In this document: in pieces, positions 5,988 to 63,657 of the stretch
Position numbering within the stretch: the stretch's first letter is position 1
Layout: each line of letters begins with the position of its first letter
IMG/VR virus record: IMGVR_UViG_644736323_000003
Coordinates: 1,012 to 65,011 of that record
Direction: 5' to 3' (one strand)
DNA from: a virus
Taxonomy: Duplodnaviria; Caudoviricetes
Length of the DNA stretch: 64,000 nt
Made by a program: the position numbers and the translations under genes
The notes under the pieces: generated by a model
Database searches by the model: none
What the model saw: the letters and a program-made list of their open reading frames with translations, nothing else
Told to the model about the DNA's origin: nothing

Positions 5988-6440
5988 ACACTGACTACTG
6001 CTCCGATCCGCATCATTGGCTCGGCAGCCGCCGACATCGCCCGCCACGTCACGACCTACGTCCGCCCGAACCGGGGGTGGGCCGAGGTCCAGGTGATGCG
6101 CGACGAGTGCCGCTACGGCTGCAAGCTCTACGTCCGCCGCCGCGGCTGCGTCCTCCAGTACGCCCTGATCCACAGCTGCACCTACGGCTGCCCCCTCGGG
6201 TGCGACCCGGCCACCCGCGTCGTCCCGGTCTCCGTAGCCCCCGCGGCGGAGAACAGCGACCGGCGGCTCGACGCCCTCGGCGGCCGGGACAACGACCGGC
6301 CTGCCGAGCTCGCCGACGACCAGCTCGACGCGCTGCTGCTGGCCTGGAGGGACGAGGCCGACAGCGTCCCGGTGGCCGAACTGGTGTCCACGGACGCCGC
6401 CCTGGCCGTCATCGCGGGCGCCCGCGACGGCTCGGCGTGA
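5979..6440 (+). CDS. Hypothetical phage protein
   Basis: First ORF after the promoter; GAGG RBS. Confidence 0.65.
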   Translation: MTNTLTTAPIRIIGSAAADIARHVTTYVRPNRGWAEVQVMRDECRYGCKLYVRRRGCVLQYALIHSCTYGCPLGCDPATRVVPVSVAPAAENSDRRLDALGGRDNDRPAELADDQLDALLLAWRDEADSVPVAELVSTDAALAVIAGARDGSA

Positions 6441-16388: not shown

Positions 16389-17333
16389 ATGCGCCCCACG
16401 GAAGAGCAGCTCAGACTGCTCGCACTGTGCAAGGTCAAGGACGTCAACTGGTACCTCATCGCCCGCGAAGCGCAGCGCCCCGGCGGGGTGGACCGCCTGT
16501 GGAAAGCCCTCCCTCTGGAAGCCTCTGCTGACGCGACCAAGGCGATCAAGGCACTAAAGCCGCTCAACGGGGCTACCGATGAGTACATCGCGATGGCGCA
16601 AGCCGAGGTCGACAAGGTCCGCGAGGACGATGTCCGCCTGGTCACCGTGCTCGACGACGAGTTCCCTCCGAACCTGCGCTTGATCCCCAACGCGCCCCCG
16701 TTCCTGTTCGTGCGCGGGACCATGACCGACGCGGATCTGCGCAGCGTCGCAGTCGTGGGCACCCGCGATGCCAGCGAAGCCGGGCGCCAGCGCGCCGGAC
16801 GCATGGCGCGCGAACTGGTGGAGCGAGGGGTGACAGTCGTGTCGGGCTTGGCCCGCGGCATCGACACCGCAGCGCATACCGCCACCCTGAAGGCCGGTGG
16901 ACGGACGATCGCAGTGATCGGTACCGGAATCAACCGCTACTTCCCTGCCGAGAACCGGGTACTCACCGACAAGATCGCCACCGACGGACAAGGCGCGGTC
17001 GTATCGCAGTTCTGGCCCGACGCCAGCGGCGCTACCTGGACGTTCCCTCGCCGCAACATCACCATGTCAGGGATCGCTCAGGGGACGGTCGTCATCGAGG
17101 CTGGCAGCACCTCCGGCGCCAAGATGCAGGCGCGCGTCGCCTTGGAGCACGGCAAGAAGGTCTTCCTGATCAAGAGCCTGACCGAGCAGCAGGAGTGGGC
17201 ACGCAAGTACGTCGAGACACGAGGCGCGGTCCAGGTGGAGGACGTCAAGGCCGTGGCCGACGCACTCACCTCGCCTGAACGCATCCAGGCCGCCGATACC
17301 CTGAGGTCTCAACTAGTGATGGACTTCATCTGA
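16389..17333 (+). CDS. dprA: DprA/Smf-family protein (ShosA-like)
   Basis: FPPNLRLIPNAPPFLFVRG, SVAVVGTR, VVSGLARGID, IAVIGTG, FPRRN, VIEAGSTSGAKMQA; no C-terminal wHTH. Confidence 0.93.
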   Translation: MRPTEEQLRLLALCKVKDVNWYLIAREAQRPGGVDRLWKALPLEASADATKAIKALKPLNGATDEYIAMAQAEVDKVREDDVRLVTVLDDEFPPNLRLIPNAPPFLFVRGTMTDADLRSVAVVGTRDASEAGRQRAGRMARELVERGVTVVSGLARGIDTAAHTATLKAGGRTIAVIGTGINRYFPAENRVLTDKIATDGQGAVVSQFWPDASGATWTFPRRNITMSGIAQGTVVIEAGSTSGAKMQARVALEHGKKVFLIKSLTEQQEWARKYVETRGAVQVEDVKAVADALTSPERIQAADTLRSQLVMDFI

Positions 17334-17349: not shown

Positions 17350-18093
17350 GTGAACTACCAGCTCCCCCCACCGGCAGGTTTCGGCAACTGCAACGGGTGC
17401 GCCTACTTCGCCTCAGGGCCACCTCAGATCTGCCAGCAGTGTGCCTCGGAAACACTCGAACCGGCCGCACCGTGGTACTGCAGAGTGTGCGGCCAGCGTG
17501 TTGTCACGGAGCAGGACCGGTGCACCAACCGACTGTGCTCCGACCCTGGACGCCAGTTCGAGTTCAACCAGGCCATAGCCATGAAGACCGGCGCCCTTGA
17601 CACGGCAATCAAAGCGCACAAGTACTCCGGGCAGTGGGGATGGGGGATCATCTTCGCTCGTGTGCTCCTCGGGTACCTTGCGCGTGATCCTCGGGCAGCA
17701 GGCGCGGACTTGATCATCCCCATGCCGTCACGCCCGCTGCCGCCCGGCATCACCACCCGCAAAGGACACGACCACGCTGGCTGGATCATTGAATCAGCAG
17801 CGACCCAGGACGACAGGTACCCGTTCCGCTTCGCACCACCGGTGCTAATCAAGACACGGGACACCGAGCGCATGGTCTCCACCCGCGGCTACGCAGAACG
17901 CTGCACTCTGTCCAACGACATCTACAACGCGCTCCAAGTGCTCGACCCAGCCGCCGTGCACGGAGCCACGGTGGCAGTGGTCGACGACGTGTTCACCACG
18001 GGCAACACCCTCAATGCCGTGGCGCGTCGACTCCGCGAAGCCGGAGCCCGTGCCGTACGGGGCTTGACGCTCGCACGTGCCCCCTACCGCTAA
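17350..18093 (+). CDS. ComF-like phosphoribosyltransferase with N-terminal zinc ribbons (ShosT-like)
   Basis: CNGC, CQQC, CRVC, CTNRLC; PRPP loop VAVVDDVFTTGNT; C-terminal VRGLTLAR. Confidence 0.88.
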   Translation: MNYQLPPPAGFGNCNGCAYFASGPPQICQQCASETLEPAAPWYCRVCGQRVVTEQDRCTNRLCSDPGRQFEFNQAIAMKTGALDTAIKAHKYSGQWGWGIIFARVLLGYLARDPRAAGADLIIPMPSRPLPPGITTRKGHDHAGWIIESAATQDDRYPFRFAPPVLIKTRDTERMVSTRGYAERCTLSNDIYNALQVLDPAAVHGATVAVVDDVFTTGNTLNAVARRLREAGARAVRGLTLARAPYR

Positions 18094-59120: not shown

Positions 59121-59497
59121 CCACGCCAGAGCAGACCCGGAAGCGCTGGACGTTCCAGCACGTGATCACGCTGGTCGTGGCCGTGCTGGTCGTGGCCTCC
59201 GTGGTGCAGGCCGTCACGTTCTACCAGCGCACCGAGCGCATCGTCGGCTGCCAGCAGGGCTACCAGCGCGGGTTCGCCGCCGCGCTGGACGCGCGCACCC
59301 AGGTCTCCGCCGAGGCGCAGCTCGCGCTCGACGAGGTGATGCGCGTCGTGAGCGTGTCGTTCAGCGCCGACGGTGCGCTCGCGCAGCGCGAGCAGGTCCG
59401 GGCCGCGATCAACGACTACCTCACCAAGCGCGAGCAGGCCCGCGAGACCCAGCGCCAGAACCCGTACCCCGCCGCGCCGGAGGAGCTGTGCCGATGA
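59117..59497 (+). CDS. Single-TM lysis-cassette protein
   Basis: TM helix then periplasmic helical domain with two Cys. Confidence 0.55.
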   Translation: MTTPEQTRKRWTFQHVITLVVAVLVVASVVQAVTFYQRTERIVGCQQGYQRGFAAALDARTQVSAEAQLALDEVMRVVSVSFSADGALAQREQVRAAINDYLTKREQARETQRQNPYPAAPEELCR

Positions 59498-60501
59498 TCT
59501 ACGGGGTCGACGCCTCCAACCACCAGCCGCACTTCGACTTCGCCGCCGCACGCCGCGACGGCATCGACTTCGCGTTCCTCAAGGCCTCCGAGGGCACCAC
59601 CTTTCGGGACCCGAACTTCGCCCGGCACCTGGCCGCCGCGCGCGCGGCCGGGATGCTCACCGCCGCCTACCACTACGTGCGCGGCGACGACGTGCGCGGG
59701 CAGCTCGCCATCATTCGCTCGGCCGTCGACACCCACACCCCGGTGATCCTGGACGTCGAGGACGGCGCCGGGCCACTGGCTTCGATCCGCGAACTGTCCG
59801 CCGCGCTGGTCGCCGCCGGGTACCGGACCCCGCTGATCTACCTGCCGCAGTGGTACTGGTCGGGCCGCATGGGCTCGCCGGACCTGTCGGGACTGCCCCC
59901 GCTGTGGCACTCGCGGTACCCGGACAACGTGGTGCGCCGCAAGGAGCAGTTCGCGCTCGGCGACGAGTACTGGCCCAGCTTCGGCGGGCTGCGCACCGAG
60001 ATCGCCCAGTTCACCTCGTCGCTCGCCGTCGCGAACTACCCGAGCGGGCGGATCGACGGCAACGCCTACCGCGGCTCGCGTGAAGAGCTGGCCGCGCTGC
60101 TGGAAGGAGAAGTCGTGCCCAGTGCGCAGGAGATCGCCAAGGCGGTGATCGCCGAGCTCAAGTCTGCGACCGCCGCCGACACCAACGGCGACGGCAAGCC
60201 CGACCGCGACCTCGTCGACCAGGTCAAGCAGAGCCTGTGGAACTCGGGCGACGCTCTGGCCGTGGTGCTCCGGCTGGAGACCAAGGTCGACGCCGCCCGC
60301 GGCGAGCTGTCCGACTTCGAGTCCGGGGTGCTGGCCGCGATGCGCCAGGACAACGCCACCATCTCCGCCGCCGTCCGCGAGCAGGTGGCCGCCAGCGTGG
60401 CCGCGACGCTGCCGCGCTCGGTGCTGGAGACCGCCTTGATCCTGCTCGACCGGCAGCGGCAGGACGCCGCCCCGGCGACCGACACGGAGGTGCAGGGATG
60501 A
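59494..60501 (+). CDS. Endolysin, GH25 muramidase
   Basis: GVDASNHQ, FAFLKASEG, AYHY, LDVED, DGNAY. Confidence 0.92.
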   Translation: MIYGVDASNHQPHFDFAAARRDGIDFAFLKASEGTTFRDPNFARHLAAARAAGMLTAAYHYVRGDDVRGQLAIIRSAVDTHTPVILDVEDGAGPLASIRELSAALVAAGYRTPLIYLPQWYWSGRMGSPDLSGLPPLWHSRYPDNVVRRKEQFALGDEYWPSFGGLRTEIAQFTSSLAVANYPSGRIDGNAYRGSREELAALLEGEVVPSAQEIAKAVIAELKSATAADTNGDGKPDRDLVDQVKQSLWNSGDALAVVLRLETKVDAARGELSDFESGVLAAMRQDNATISAAVREQVAASVAATLPRSVLETALILLDRQRQDAAPATDTEVQG

Positions 60502-61556
60502 GCAGCATCCTGGACGGGCTGAAGGTCAACGTCTACGGGAACAGCATTGCCGCCTGGGACGACCCGTGGGGCTGGGTGCCCCGGATGCGGGCCGACCACA
60601 ACTGGCAGCTGACCTGGGGCGCGGAGTGGTCGTCGCGGGCGGTGGATGCGGTCGGGCAGGCCACCGCCGTCGCGTCGCCGCACCGGATCGACCACAGCCG
60701 CAAGCCCCACGTGGTGATCGTTGACGCGGTCGCGAACGACGCCTACGGCCTCGGCGCGGGCAACCTGCCCGCGTTCACCACCGCGGTGCGGTCGCTGGCC
60801 ACGTACGCCCTGCTGGAAGGCGTCATGAACGTCGTCGACTGTGGGTTCCCTGCCGCGTCGTGGACGTTCAACCAGGGCGAGGACTTCATCGCCGGGCGAA
60901 ACGTCACCGCTGCGGCGGGAACCGAGCACCAGCTGCCCGGCTTCAACCGGGCCGGGAAGTGGGCGTTCTTTTACTACGGCCTGGCCGGTGGGAACTCCGG
61001 CTGGCAGGGCGGTTCGTGGAGCCTGGCGCGCGACGGCGTCCCGCTGGGCACCTACTCCTGCCACAACCGCACCCACAACCCGTCCACTTCGGACAGGATG
61101 TTCGGGTACGGGTCGGGCGGGCAGCGCGTGCGGCGCCAGTGGGTGCTGTGCAGCGAGGTCGTCGACGTGCCCGCCACGGCGCAGTTCACGGTGAAGGCGG
61201 GCCCTGGCGGCGGGAACCCGTACTTCGCTGGCTACGGGAAGCTCAACGAAGCGCAGGGGTCGACGTCCCGGCAGTCGCCGCTTGTCGTCCTGGTCGAGCC
61301 CGCCTACGGCTACGACGCCGCTACGAACAGCGTGCTCGACTCCTACGCCGACGCGCTGCACCAGATCGCCGCGTCCCTGCCCAACGTCGTCGTCGCCCGC
61401 ACCCGCAACGGCTGGGACACCGACCGCATGGCCCGCGTCGGCGACTTCCTGCACCCGAACGCGGTCGGCTGCCGCCACTACCAGGACGCCATCGAGGCCG
61501 CCGTGAACGGCGCCCACGCGGGCGGCTGGATCCCCAACACCCACCTCCCGGTCTAG
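60498..61556 (+). CDS. SGNH/GDSL-like hydrolase in the lysis cassette
   Basis: VYGNSIA, DAVAND, DFLHPNAVG. Confidence 0.7.
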   Translation: MSSILDGLKVNVYGNSIAAWDDPWGWVPRMRADHNWQLTWGAEWSSRAVDAVGQATAVASPHRIDHSRKPHVVIVDAVANDAYGLGAGNLPAFTTAVRSLATYALLEGVMNVVDCGFPAASWTFNQGEDFIAGRNVTAAAGTEHQLPGFNRAGKWAFFYYGLAGGNSGWQGGSWSLARDGVPLGTYSCHNRTHNPSTSDRMFGYGSGGQRVRRQWVLCSEVVDVPATAQFTVKAGPGGGNPYFAGYGKLNEAQGSTSRQSPLVVLVEPAYGYDAATNSVLDSYADALHQIAASLPNVVVARTRNGWDTDRMARVGDFLHPNAVGCRHYQDAIEAAVNGAHAGGWIPNTHLPV

Positions 61557-61568
61557 GAGAACACCGTC

Positions 61569-61961
61569 GTGAAGGTCTTCGGCCGCGAGCCCGCGTACTG
61601 GCTCGCCCTCGTCTCCAGCGTGGTTGCGTTCGTGTCGGCCGCCGTGCTGCCGCTGAGCGTCGAGCAGCAGGGCGTGCTCAACGCCGCCGCCGCCGCGTTG
61701 TTCGGCGTGCTCACCGCGTGGACGCTCGCCGGGGAACGGCTCGTCGCCGCGCTGGTCGGCCTCGGCAAGGCACTGGTCGCCGCGGGGTTGGCGTTCGGCT
61801 TGGCGCTGGCGCCCGAGGTGCAGTCCACGCTGATGGTGCTCGTCGAGCTCGTGCTGACCGGGCTGCTCGTGCGGCCCGCCGTGATCGCCCCCGTCCCCTC
61901 CAGCACCGTCCCGCCGGGCGTCGTCGAGCTCCTCGACCGCCCTCGCACCCTGAAGGAGTAG
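61569..61961 (+). CDS. Holin-like protein
   Basis: VFGREPA start; four TM helices. Confidence 0.7.
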   Translation: MKVFGREPAYWLALVSSVVAFVSAAVLPLSVEQQGVLNAAAAALFGVLTAWTLAGERLVAALVGLGKALVAAGLAFGLALAPEVQSTLMVLVELVLTGLLVRPAVIAPVPSSTVPPGVVELLDRPRTLKE

Positions 61962-61964
61962 ATC

Positions 61965-62198
61965 GTGGAGAACCAGCACCAGAAGATCACCGGCTACCGC
62001 GACCTCGACCAGAACGAGATCGACGTGATGAACGCGGTGAAGGAGGTCGAGAAGGAGTTCGCCGCGCTGTGGCGTCGGCTGGGCAACCTGCCCGACGTCG
62101 ACCGCCGCTGGCTCGCCGTCGCCCGCACCCACGTCGAGGAGGGCTGCTCGGCGGCGGCCCGCGCGGTCGCTCGCCCGGACTCGCCGTTCGACGCCTGA
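61965..62198 (+). CDS. acb2: Acb2/Tad1-family nucleotide sponge (anti-CBASS protein 2-like)
   Basis: MENQHQKITGYRDL.Q.EID.MN.VKE...RWLAVART...RAVARPDS follows the Acb2 pattern as recalled. Confidence 0.85.
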   Translation: MENQHQKITGYRDLDQNEIDVMNAVKEVEKEFAALWRRLGNLPDVDRRWLAVARTHVEEGCSAAARAVARPDSPFDA

Positions 62199-62214
62199 TC
62201 TCGCACAGCACAGT

Positions 62215-62246
62215 GCCCCCGCTCCGGCTTCGGCCGGGCGGGGGCG
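62215..62246. terminator. Bidirectional terminator between late operon and integrase
   Basis: GCCCCCGCTCCGGC-TTCG-GCCGGGCGGGGGC followed by a T-rich stretch. Confidence 0.75.
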
Positions 62247-62257
62247 CTTTCGTCGTC

Positions 62258-63490
62258 TCAGATCTGTCGCGCGCTCGGCATCGCTTTGGGTGCGGCGGGG
62301 GCAAGCAGTTTGTCGAGCGACAGGGCAAGCGCGGGGCTGGCGGTGACACGGCTCATGTAGACGTCCTGAGTCGTGGACGGGCGCGAGTGGCGGAGCTGCC
62401 CGGCGACTTCGCGCGCGGTGTGTCCGGCTGCATCTAGGGCGGTGGCGACGGTGCGGCGCCCGACGCGCAGGGTGAAGTCGCGGTACCCGATCCGGTCACG
62501 CAGCAGCCGAACGGTGCGCTGCACGTTCGATGGACCTCGCCATCCCCCGGTCGCCGACGGAAAAACCGGGGTCTCCGGTCGCGCCACGGCGGGCCGACGC
62601 TCCACCAGCATCTCCCAGAGCACGTCCGGTAGGGCGAGCACACCGACCGACGTGGCGGTTTTTCCCTCATGGCGCACCACGCCTTGGCCGGTGACGTGGA
62701 CGAGGTTCCCGTTGATCCAAGCGCTGTGCGCCGGAACGGTTTCCTGGCTGCCGTCGGCGAGCACGAGCCGAACGGGAACGTCACCGAGGTTCAGGTCACC
62801 CCAACGGATCGCAAGCACTTCACCGAAACGTGCACCCGTACCGAAGAGGACCCGCAGGAAATCTGGCATGTCGGCGCGTCGTGCGCGCGTGTCTCCGTCC
62901 ACACGTGCGAGAAAGTCGGTGAGCTGCGCAGAGTCGAAGGAGGCCTTCTTCCGGTTCCGTCGACTGGAGGCAAGACGGGCCATGTGGCGTACCGAGTTTT
63001 GGTGGACGACCTCTAGATCCACTGCCTCCTGCAGGACCCCTGATATGACCGTCCGTATACCCTGGATGGTCGCCGTCGCCATCCCTCGGTGTCGCAGCGC
63101 CTCCAAGACGCGCTTGATGCGCGCCGGTGTGCACTCCTGGATGTAGAGGTTTCCCATCGCGGGCAGGATGTGCTTGTCGAGGCGGCCTCGGTAGCGGTCG
63201 TAGGTGGTGCCGACGTTGTCCCGCTTGATGCGGTCGATCCACATCTGGGCTACTGCCGCGAACCTCACCCTCGCCTCGGCGCTGCGCGACACACCGGAAC
63301 TGCTCAGCGCCTCGCCCAGGGCTTTTTTCAGAGAGCTGATCGCTTTCCGCTCCGTGGGTCCGAAGCGGTGGAGAGGTCGGGTGACGCCGTCGCTACCTCG
63401 GTAGCGGGCGTGGGCGCGCCAGGATCCGTTGGCCTGCTGCTTGCAGGAGATGTCACCGTACGTGCCGATTTCGAGAGATGGCCTGGCCAC
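62258..63490 (-). CDS. int: Tyrosine recombinase / integrase
   Basis: GTGARFGEVLAIRW; RVGRRTVAT; QLRHS..STTQDVY. Confidence 0.93.
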   Translation of the reverse strand: MARPSLEIGTYGDISCKQQANGSWRAHARYRGSDGVTRPLHRFGPTERKAISSLKKALGEALSSSGVSRSAEARVRFAAVAQMWIDRIKRDNVGTTYDRYRGRLDKHILPAMGNLYIQECTPARIKRVLEALRHRGMATATIQGIRTVISGVLQEAVDLEVVHQNSVRHMARLASSRRNRKKASFDSAQLTDFLARVDGDTRARRADMPDFLRVLFGTGARFGEVLAIRWGDLNLGDVPVRLVLADGSQETVPAHSAWINGNLVHVTGQGVVRHEGKTATSVGVLALPDVLWEMLVERRPAVARPETPVFPSATGGWRGPSNVQRTVRLLRDRIGYRDFTLRVGRRTVATALDAAGHTAREVAGQLRHSRPSTTQDVYMSRVTASPALALSLDKLLAPAAPKAMPSARQI

Positions 63491-63580: not shown

Positions 63581-63657
63581 TGGTGCCCCCGGTGCGACTC
63601 GAACGCACACTGGACGGATTTTGAGTCCGCTGCCTCTGCCGATTGGGCTACGGGGGC
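63581..63657 (-). tRNA. tRNA-Leu(CAA), integration target (att junction in its 3' part)
   Basis: GCCCCCG/CGGGGGC acceptor stem, anticodon loop CTCAAAA, GTTCGAGTC T-loop, CCA end facing the prophage. Confidence 0.95.

Follow-up and report, generated by a model that had tools for sequence, protein, structure and literature searches.

Does the 77-residue gene that closes the lysis operon of an actinomycete prophage encode a sponge for the signal molecules of CBASS, and if so, which signals would it hold and in which host cells? Acb2 proteins are small phage proteins that form an interlocked homohexamer and sequester CBASS signals without cleaving them. The family goes back to the work of Huiting et al. 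(2023) and Jenson et al. (2023), and it has been further described by Cao et al. (PMC10312549) and Hadary et al. 2025 (10.1101/2025.08.24.671296).

In this work we analyzed a stretch of 64,000 nucleotides from a virus record (IMG/VR IMGVR_UViG_644736323_000003, positions 1,012 to 65,011), referred to here as the window, in which an Acb2-type gene (acb2) had been predicted from the letters alone. The comparison of its product with characterized relatives, together with a structural model, makes it very probable that the gene encodes an Acb2-family sponge that would keep CBASS effectors silent by sequestering cyclic oligonucleotides.

The acb2 gene, the lysis operon and the integrated element

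The features on which the analysis is based are the following.

59488..60501, + strand: endolysin of glycoside hydrolase family 25 (PF01183, 67.7 bits; phrog_3084, E 9e-46)
60498..61556, + strand: 352-aa gene between endolysin and holin, with a coding signature
61569..61961, + strand: holin (phrog_9752, E 1e-19), immediately upstream of acb2
61952..61958, + strand: Shine-Dalgarno sequence GAAGGAG, read from the sequence, 6 nt before the acb2 GTG and within the 3' end of the holin gene
61965..62198, + strand: acb2, putative 77-aa Acb2-family cyclic-oligonucleotide sponge of the short-loop PaMx33-type (open reading frame, PF24729, PDB 8h2j, AlphaFold2/Foldseek, GC3)
62212..62248, no strand assigned: GC-rich hairpin of 37 nt between the converging acb2 and integrase genes (RNA fold)
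62258..63490, - strand: tyrosine integrase, converging on acb2 (PF22022, PF14659, PF00589)
63581..63657, - strand: tRNA-Leu(CAA) (ARAGORN)
16389-17330 and 17350-18090, + strand: ShosTA-like pair (PADLOC ShosA 230 bits, E 8e-69; ShosT 38.5 bits, E 3e-10)

The acb2 reading frame starts with a GTG at 61965 and its stop codon ends at 62198 (77 codons), exactly as the original prediction had it. The GC content at the three codon positions (GC1 0.73, GC2 0.42, GC3 0.96) follows the same coding pattern as in the neighbouring genes. The endolysin, the 352-aa gene, the holin and acb2 share one strand and are a few bases apart, and 3 nt separate the holin stop codon from the acb2 GTG; acb2 is the last gene of this rightward late operon, and its proposed location after the lysis genes was confirmed. 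From the gene order and the coupled ribosome-binding site it can be expected that acb2 is expressed late, being transcribed last in the endolysin-holin operon and translated from the ribosome-binding site inside the holin gene. The 352-aa gene has no match in Pfam or in the PHROGs and could encode a second lysis enzyme; in a related cassette (G045) the endolysin is directly followed by the holin and this gene has no counterpart.

The hairpin downstream of acb2 came from folding: the 70 nt between 62196 and 62265 fold with -42.5 kcal/mol (z -5.4), and none of 200 shuffled sequences folded as well. It is likely a bidirectional terminator. A scan for U-tract terminators between 58300 and 62500 returned nothing and left this hairpin uncalled. 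The promoter scan of the same interval, which uses a sigma-70 consensus that is not valid for actinomycetes, also returned nothing.

Farther upstream, the large terminase, portal, major head (capsid) and tape-measure genes were identified with the PHROGs. The portal matched 1551 phage records, all of them actinobacteriophages and the best being Streptomyces phage Kromp (56%), in agreement with the actinomycete-phage context that had been proposed. The 3'-terminal 41 bases of the tRNA-Leu gene (63581-63621), which constitute the att core, are repeated with 41/41 identity at positions -2366..-2326 relative to the window (blastn against its own genome). No 14-mer of the tRNA region is repeated within the window, the att partner lying outside, 2.3 kb to the left of its start. 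Given this exact 41-bp direct repeat, the integrated stretch has about 66 kb and spans nearly the whole window. It contains phage genes, a conjugation-like cassette and the ShosTA-like pair, and may represent one element or two in tandem. The members of the ShosTA-like pair also match the Pfam DprA and PRTase domains. Since this pair and acb2 are both inside the att-bounded stretch, the proposal that one element carries defence as well as anti-defence genes holds at the level of homology, and a counter-defence gene would share the prophage with a ShosTA-like defence module.

Family membership, fold and ligand pockets

The alignment to the Acb2/Tad1 hairpin profile, which had been suggested as a check, gave a significant match: against Pfam-A the acb2 product scored 65.5 bits on PF24729 (Acb2_Tad1_hairpin; cut-off 27, E 5e-18) over the entire profile (positions 1-58 of 58), and a search of the whole genome with this profile gave the same result for acb2. 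The best matches of the sequence search against the PDB were the PaMx33 Acb2 entries 8h2j (E 7e-15) and 8ixz (E 3e-14). The alignment with 8h2j begins at the first residue and covers residues 1-73 of the acb2 product with 41% identity; T4 Vs.4 (7uq2) was a marginal match (E 0.28). Among the PHROGs, the product matched phrog_717 and phrog_29522, neither of which has an assigned function, and no PADLOC model matched it, as expected of a library of defence proteins. The AlphaFold2 model, built with 22 homologs (mean pLDDT 87), has an extended segment at the N-terminus, followed by two helices (residues 16-40 and 47-69) with a six-residue turn between them, that is, a two-helix hairpin. When this model was compared with the PDB using Foldseek, ranks 1-9 were all chains of Acb2 (8h2x, 8h2j) or T4 Vs.4 (7uq2), with a probability of 1.00 and TM-scores of 0.62-0.76, and all lower ranks had E > 1. 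The model has no beta-strands and so lacks the N- and C-terminal strands of the Thoeris-inhibiting Acb2_43-type branch. The profile score, the match to 8h2j and the Foldseek result bear out the Acb2-type assignment, and by sequence and predicted fold the 77-aa product clearly reads as an ordinary member of the Acb2 family, although its group of hosts is an unusual one.

The residues of the pocket for cyclic trinucleotides are present in only a subset of the Acb2 family. In PaMx33 Acb2, cyclic dinucleotides are held by stacking of Y11 on the bases and by salt bridges to K26, and the substitutions Y11A and K26A abolish binding (PMC10312549); the adenine of cGAMP is also contacted by L14 and P90 (10.1101/2025.08.24.671296). 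The cyclic trinucleotides have a three-fold pocket of their own, made up of R67, T74, A70 and I71; cA3 binding is abolished by R67A and weakened by T74A (PMC10312549). When the acb2 product was aligned with PaMx33 Acb2 using HMMER, the dinucleotide pocket was found to be identical (Y11, L14, K26 and P71, the last equivalent to P90), and the cA3 pocket was represented by R48 (=R67), A51 (=A70), V52 (=I71) and T55 (=T74). The only change among the eight positions is thus the conservative replacement of I71 by V52. In the set of 22 homologs there is no variation at R48 and T55, and Y11, K26 and A51 are each shared by 90% or more of the sequences. The residue pattern that had suggested an Acb2 protein is completely present in the translation (Y11, K26, R48-W-L-A-V-A-R-T55 and R66-A-V-A-R-P71), and the roles ascribed to these residues in the Pseudomonas phage protein match the published mutagenesis and structures (PMC10312549).

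If the acb2 product behaves as PaMx33 Acb2 does, the helical-hairpin chains would form a hexamer, and 3'3'-cGAMP, cUA and their relatives would be sequestered in the Y11/L14/K26/P71 pockets of paired protomers; cA3 and cAAG would probably also be held in the three-fold pockets of R48, A51, V52 and T55. As a consequence, the CBASS effectors in the infected cell would stay silent, to the presumed benefit of the phage. The Acb2 proteins of T4 and CHI14 lost cA3 binding despite partial conservation of the residues (PMC10312549); because residue conservation failed to predict cA3 binding in these two proteins, the claim for trinucleotides is weaker than that for dinucleotides.

At the hairpin tip, the acb2 product is shorter than PaMx33 Acb2 by about 19 residues (77 versus 93-94 aa), as was already noticed in the original prediction as a shorter central loop. 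The 1052 clusters that a HMMER search of 1.8 billion representative proteins retrieved at E <= 1e-3 include, among the best matches, many proteins of 73-80 aa that align end to end. Similarly, of 50,697 phage records searched with tblastn, 252 were matched at E <= 1e-3. Many of these matches extend without a gap over 73-76 residues, the phages concerned infecting Pseudomonas, Salmonella, Klebsiella, Erwinia, Aeromonas and Vibrio, and Pseudomonas phage MKPT02 ranks first (58%). As these searches indicate, the shorter loop is common within the family. It was reported that among 46 assayed Acb2 homologs of 62-97 aa (Hadary et al. 2025, 10.1101/2025.08.24.671296), Acb2_26, with 74 aa, inhibits cUA and cGAMP CBASS in liquid culture and plaque assays, and that it has no inhibitory effect on Pycsar or on Thoeris of type I or II (Table S2 therein). 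This protein aligns with the acb2 product without gaps over 73 residues (44% identity); given that a short, colinear relative blocks CBASS, the hairpin tip is dispensable for CBASS inhibition. The Acb2 of JBD67, which had been considered as another tested short form from a 228 bp deletion (PMC10312549), was dropped, as it has 107 aa (Hadary et al., Table S1). The signatures RRWLAVART and EEGCSAA of the clade to which the acb2 product belongs had no match in the portion of that Table S1 that was covered.

Distribution, possible targets and competing explanations

The genome of the lysogen, a single contig of 8.25 Mb, has exactly one Acb2 gene. In its genus, Acb2 was found in 2 of 47 species genomes, and no other genome among 400 sampled from the phylum reached the PF24729 cut-off. 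The second Acb2 of the genus (G031:C2, L003 1471-1728) has 85 aa, is 47% identical, carries F in place of Y11, and is also located just after an endolysin, in this case of the GH25-LysM type. Ten other proteins of 76-80 aa with 71-82% identity form a close clade with the acb2 product; 41 of the 77 columns are invariant in the 11 members, and the position of Y11 is occupied by C in one of them (P0011) and by F in another (P0007). The stacking residue equivalent to Y11 is therefore, from these sequences, variable among natural homologs.

A search of genome contigs for related loci returned only distant matches in proteobacterial MAGs, and a search of the viral collection returned one close locus (L021, IMG/VR UViG_3300044648_000338), in which a 78% identical Acb2 (6001-6231) is encoded on a 43-kb contig of 71.6% GC. 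There the gene is placed between the minor head and the scaffold/major head genes, and the portal of this phage belongs to another family. In the related endolysin-holin cassette of another congeneric genome (G045), whose holin is 62% identical, no acb2 follows the holin. Given these other slots in high-GC phages and the cassette without acb2, the gene behaves as a movable accessory gene. A very recent import is disfavoured because of the host-like codon usage and the presence of two diverged copies in one genus. Among the matches listed for the 265 phage records retrieved at E <= 1 there was no actinophage. As a separate observation, in the Pseudomonas phage records MZ868714-17, MT104468-70, PP003914 and PQ015601 the Acb2 homologs either carry the labels 'NAD/FAD-utilizing enzyme', 'Rz-like spanin' or 'non-cytoplasmic domain protein' or fall in regions without a called gene; these are probable misannotations.

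Regarding the possible targets, the lysogen genome gave no match to SMODS (the CBASS cyclase), SAVED, Cmr2-type Cas10 or mCpol. SMODS cyclases were found in 11 of the 46 other congeneric species, and the six that were checked scored 316-534 bits on the oligonucleotide-cyclase models of PADLOC and are adjoined by 4TM effectors and a HORMA gene. As a quarter of the genus has CBASS, the system occurs among the likely hosts although it is absent from this lysogen, and the CBASS targets of the acb2 product would be, as far as these genomes suggest, other strains of the genus. The CBASS part of the counter-defence role originally proposed would then apply to those other strains. The part concerning type III CRISPR signalling is weak, considering that the ligands of PaMx33 Acb2 include cA3 but neither cA4 nor cA6 (PMC10312549) and that no match to Cmr2-type Cas10 was obtained in the genome.

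The inspection of the host for Thoeris, also suggested beforehand, had a different outcome from that for CBASS. The lysogen has four TIR-domain ORFs, one of which belongs to the following pair.

L008 516-1908 region (G000:C1 ~199371-200763), - strand: ThsB-like TIR gene, 149 aa (PADLOC ThsB 28 bits; Pfam ThsB_TIR 27 bits), and caspase-like gene, 330 aa (PADLOC caspase 68 bits)

The caspase-like gene is located directly downstream of the TIR gene, and in its arrangement the pair resembles type IV Thoeris (TIR-caspase). Two other candidate defence loci were observed in this genome, a TIR-domain ORF that adjoins a Lamassu LmuB-like gene (215 bits; L006 928-3149, - strand) and a bSEFIR-like gene (100 bits; L007 1492-2370, + strand). 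A DAC-domain gene (61 bits) is also present.

A lysogen without CBASS that nevertheless carries the TIR-caspase pair and three more TIR-domain ORFs could favour the idea that the sponge binds a TIR-derived signal instead of CBASS nucleotides, either 3'cADPR (type I Thoeris) or N7-cADPR (type IV Thoeris), all the more as 10 of the 46 assayed Acb2 homologs inhibited type I Thoeris (10.1101/2025.08.24.671296). We consider this quite unlikely. The Thoeris binder with a solved structure, Acb2_43, uses an extra N-terminal beta-strand (L6, V7, H5, T4) and gave no inhibition of CBASS, whereas the acb2 product keeps the full CBASS-type pocket of PaMx33 Acb2 described above; the colinear Acb2_26 leaves both types of Thoeris assayed with it uninhibited, and in the same study it was Tad2 proteins that inhibited type IV Thoeris (10.1101/2025.08.24.671296). 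The DAC-domain gene bears on another explanation, according to which the main target would be a housekeeping cyclic dinucleotide, c-di-AMP from the host DAC, and the gene would bring about a late change in host physiology and not a block of immunity. PaMx33 Acb2 does accept c-di-AMP in the same pocket (PMC10312549), and acb2 is tied to the lysis operon and not to early genes. Nevertheless, there is no evidence of any Acb2 acting in this manner, the family is found overwhelmingly in phages of CBASS-bearing hosts, and the presence of CBASS in a quarter of the genus suffices as an explanation, for which reasons we give this possibility very little weight.

It could also be argued from the lack of CBASS in the lysogen, and from the rarity of Acb2 in the genus and in the phylum, that acb2 is a passenger with no current function in this phage-host pair. 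This seems the least probable of all, given that the frame is intact, the codon usage is host-like (GC3 0.96), the Shine-Dalgarno sequence is strong, and the invariant columns of the 11 clade members include the pocket residues, save Y11 in P0007 and P0011; moreover, prophage genes are selected across the host range of the phage and not solely in the present lysogen. Several points speak against the reading as a sponge for CBASS signals: an expression timed with the lysis genes would be late for counter-defence, no target is visible in the strain that carries the prophage, and the central region is shorter than in the crystallised PaMx33 protein, with cA3 binding being lost in some homologs. 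By analogy, there is also a small chance that the sponge could bind host c-di-AMP in addition, or that the high-GC clade may have shifted to a TIR-derived signal, that of the TIR-caspase pair of the host. If the sponge did bind c-di-AMP, having its gene close the lysis operon might spare the lysogen a toxic effect or disturb c-di-AMP-controlled physiology shortly before lysis.

Relation to known Acb2 systems

With the sponge for CBASS signals as the preferred explanation, acb2 offers an anti-CBASS candidate amenable to testing, encoded by a temperate phage whose host is an actinomycete with a large, high-GC genome. For this group no experimental work on CBASS or its inhibitors was found in the literature searched. 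Acb2 proteins in actinobacteriophages as such are already annotated: Acb2-type 'cyclic oligonucleotide sequestering proteins' have been described in the cluster E mycobacteriophages Xandras and BigBubba (PMC11953737), and Acb2 also in Microbacterium phage Statler (PMC13348362). Judged by its sequence, acb2 adds one novel element only, namely that a protein of the PaMx33-type subfamily, keeping both pockets, is encoded by the prophage of a high-GC actinomycete. This subfamily would then not be confined to phages of Proteobacteria but include a conserved high-GC clade of few members (the 11 sequences mentioned above); the understanding of the Acb2 mechanism is unchanged by this finding.

The mycobacteriophage proteins belong to a different branch. 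Xandras gp101 (65 aa) scores 59 bits on PF24729, but it is a member of another subfamily that lacks the NQH-KI-GYRDL N-terminus and gives a weak local match of 43 residues with the acb2 product (E 0.002). In addition, the mycobacteriophage genes are located among early or replication genes, in contrast with the position of acb2 after the lysis genes. T4 Vs.4 (7uq2) has the same fold and the same dinucleotide pocket (Foldseek ranks 7-9); however, it has no equivalent of R67 and does not bind cA3 (PMC10312549), whereas the acb2 product keeps both the R and the T. Closer in architecture is Acb2_26, from an IMG/VR metagenomic phage, which has the same short loop and the same pocket residues, and differs in its low-GC-style sequence and its metagenomic source.

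The closest characterized system is the Acb2 of PaMx33 (p26; 8h2j, 8h2x, 8ixz). Both proteins share the N-terminal motif M-[ED]-NQH-x-KI-x-GYRDL-xQ-EID-MN-VKE, the residues for di- and trinucleotides (with V52 in the place of I71) and the two-helix hairpin fold, which is predicted in the case of acb2, and in both phages the gene is the last of its operon and is followed by a bidirectional terminator, a likely one in the prophage. They differ in that the PaMx33 gene closes an operon of replication genes in a phage of Pseudomonas, whereas acb2 closes the lysis operon of a temperate phage of a high-GC actinomycete.
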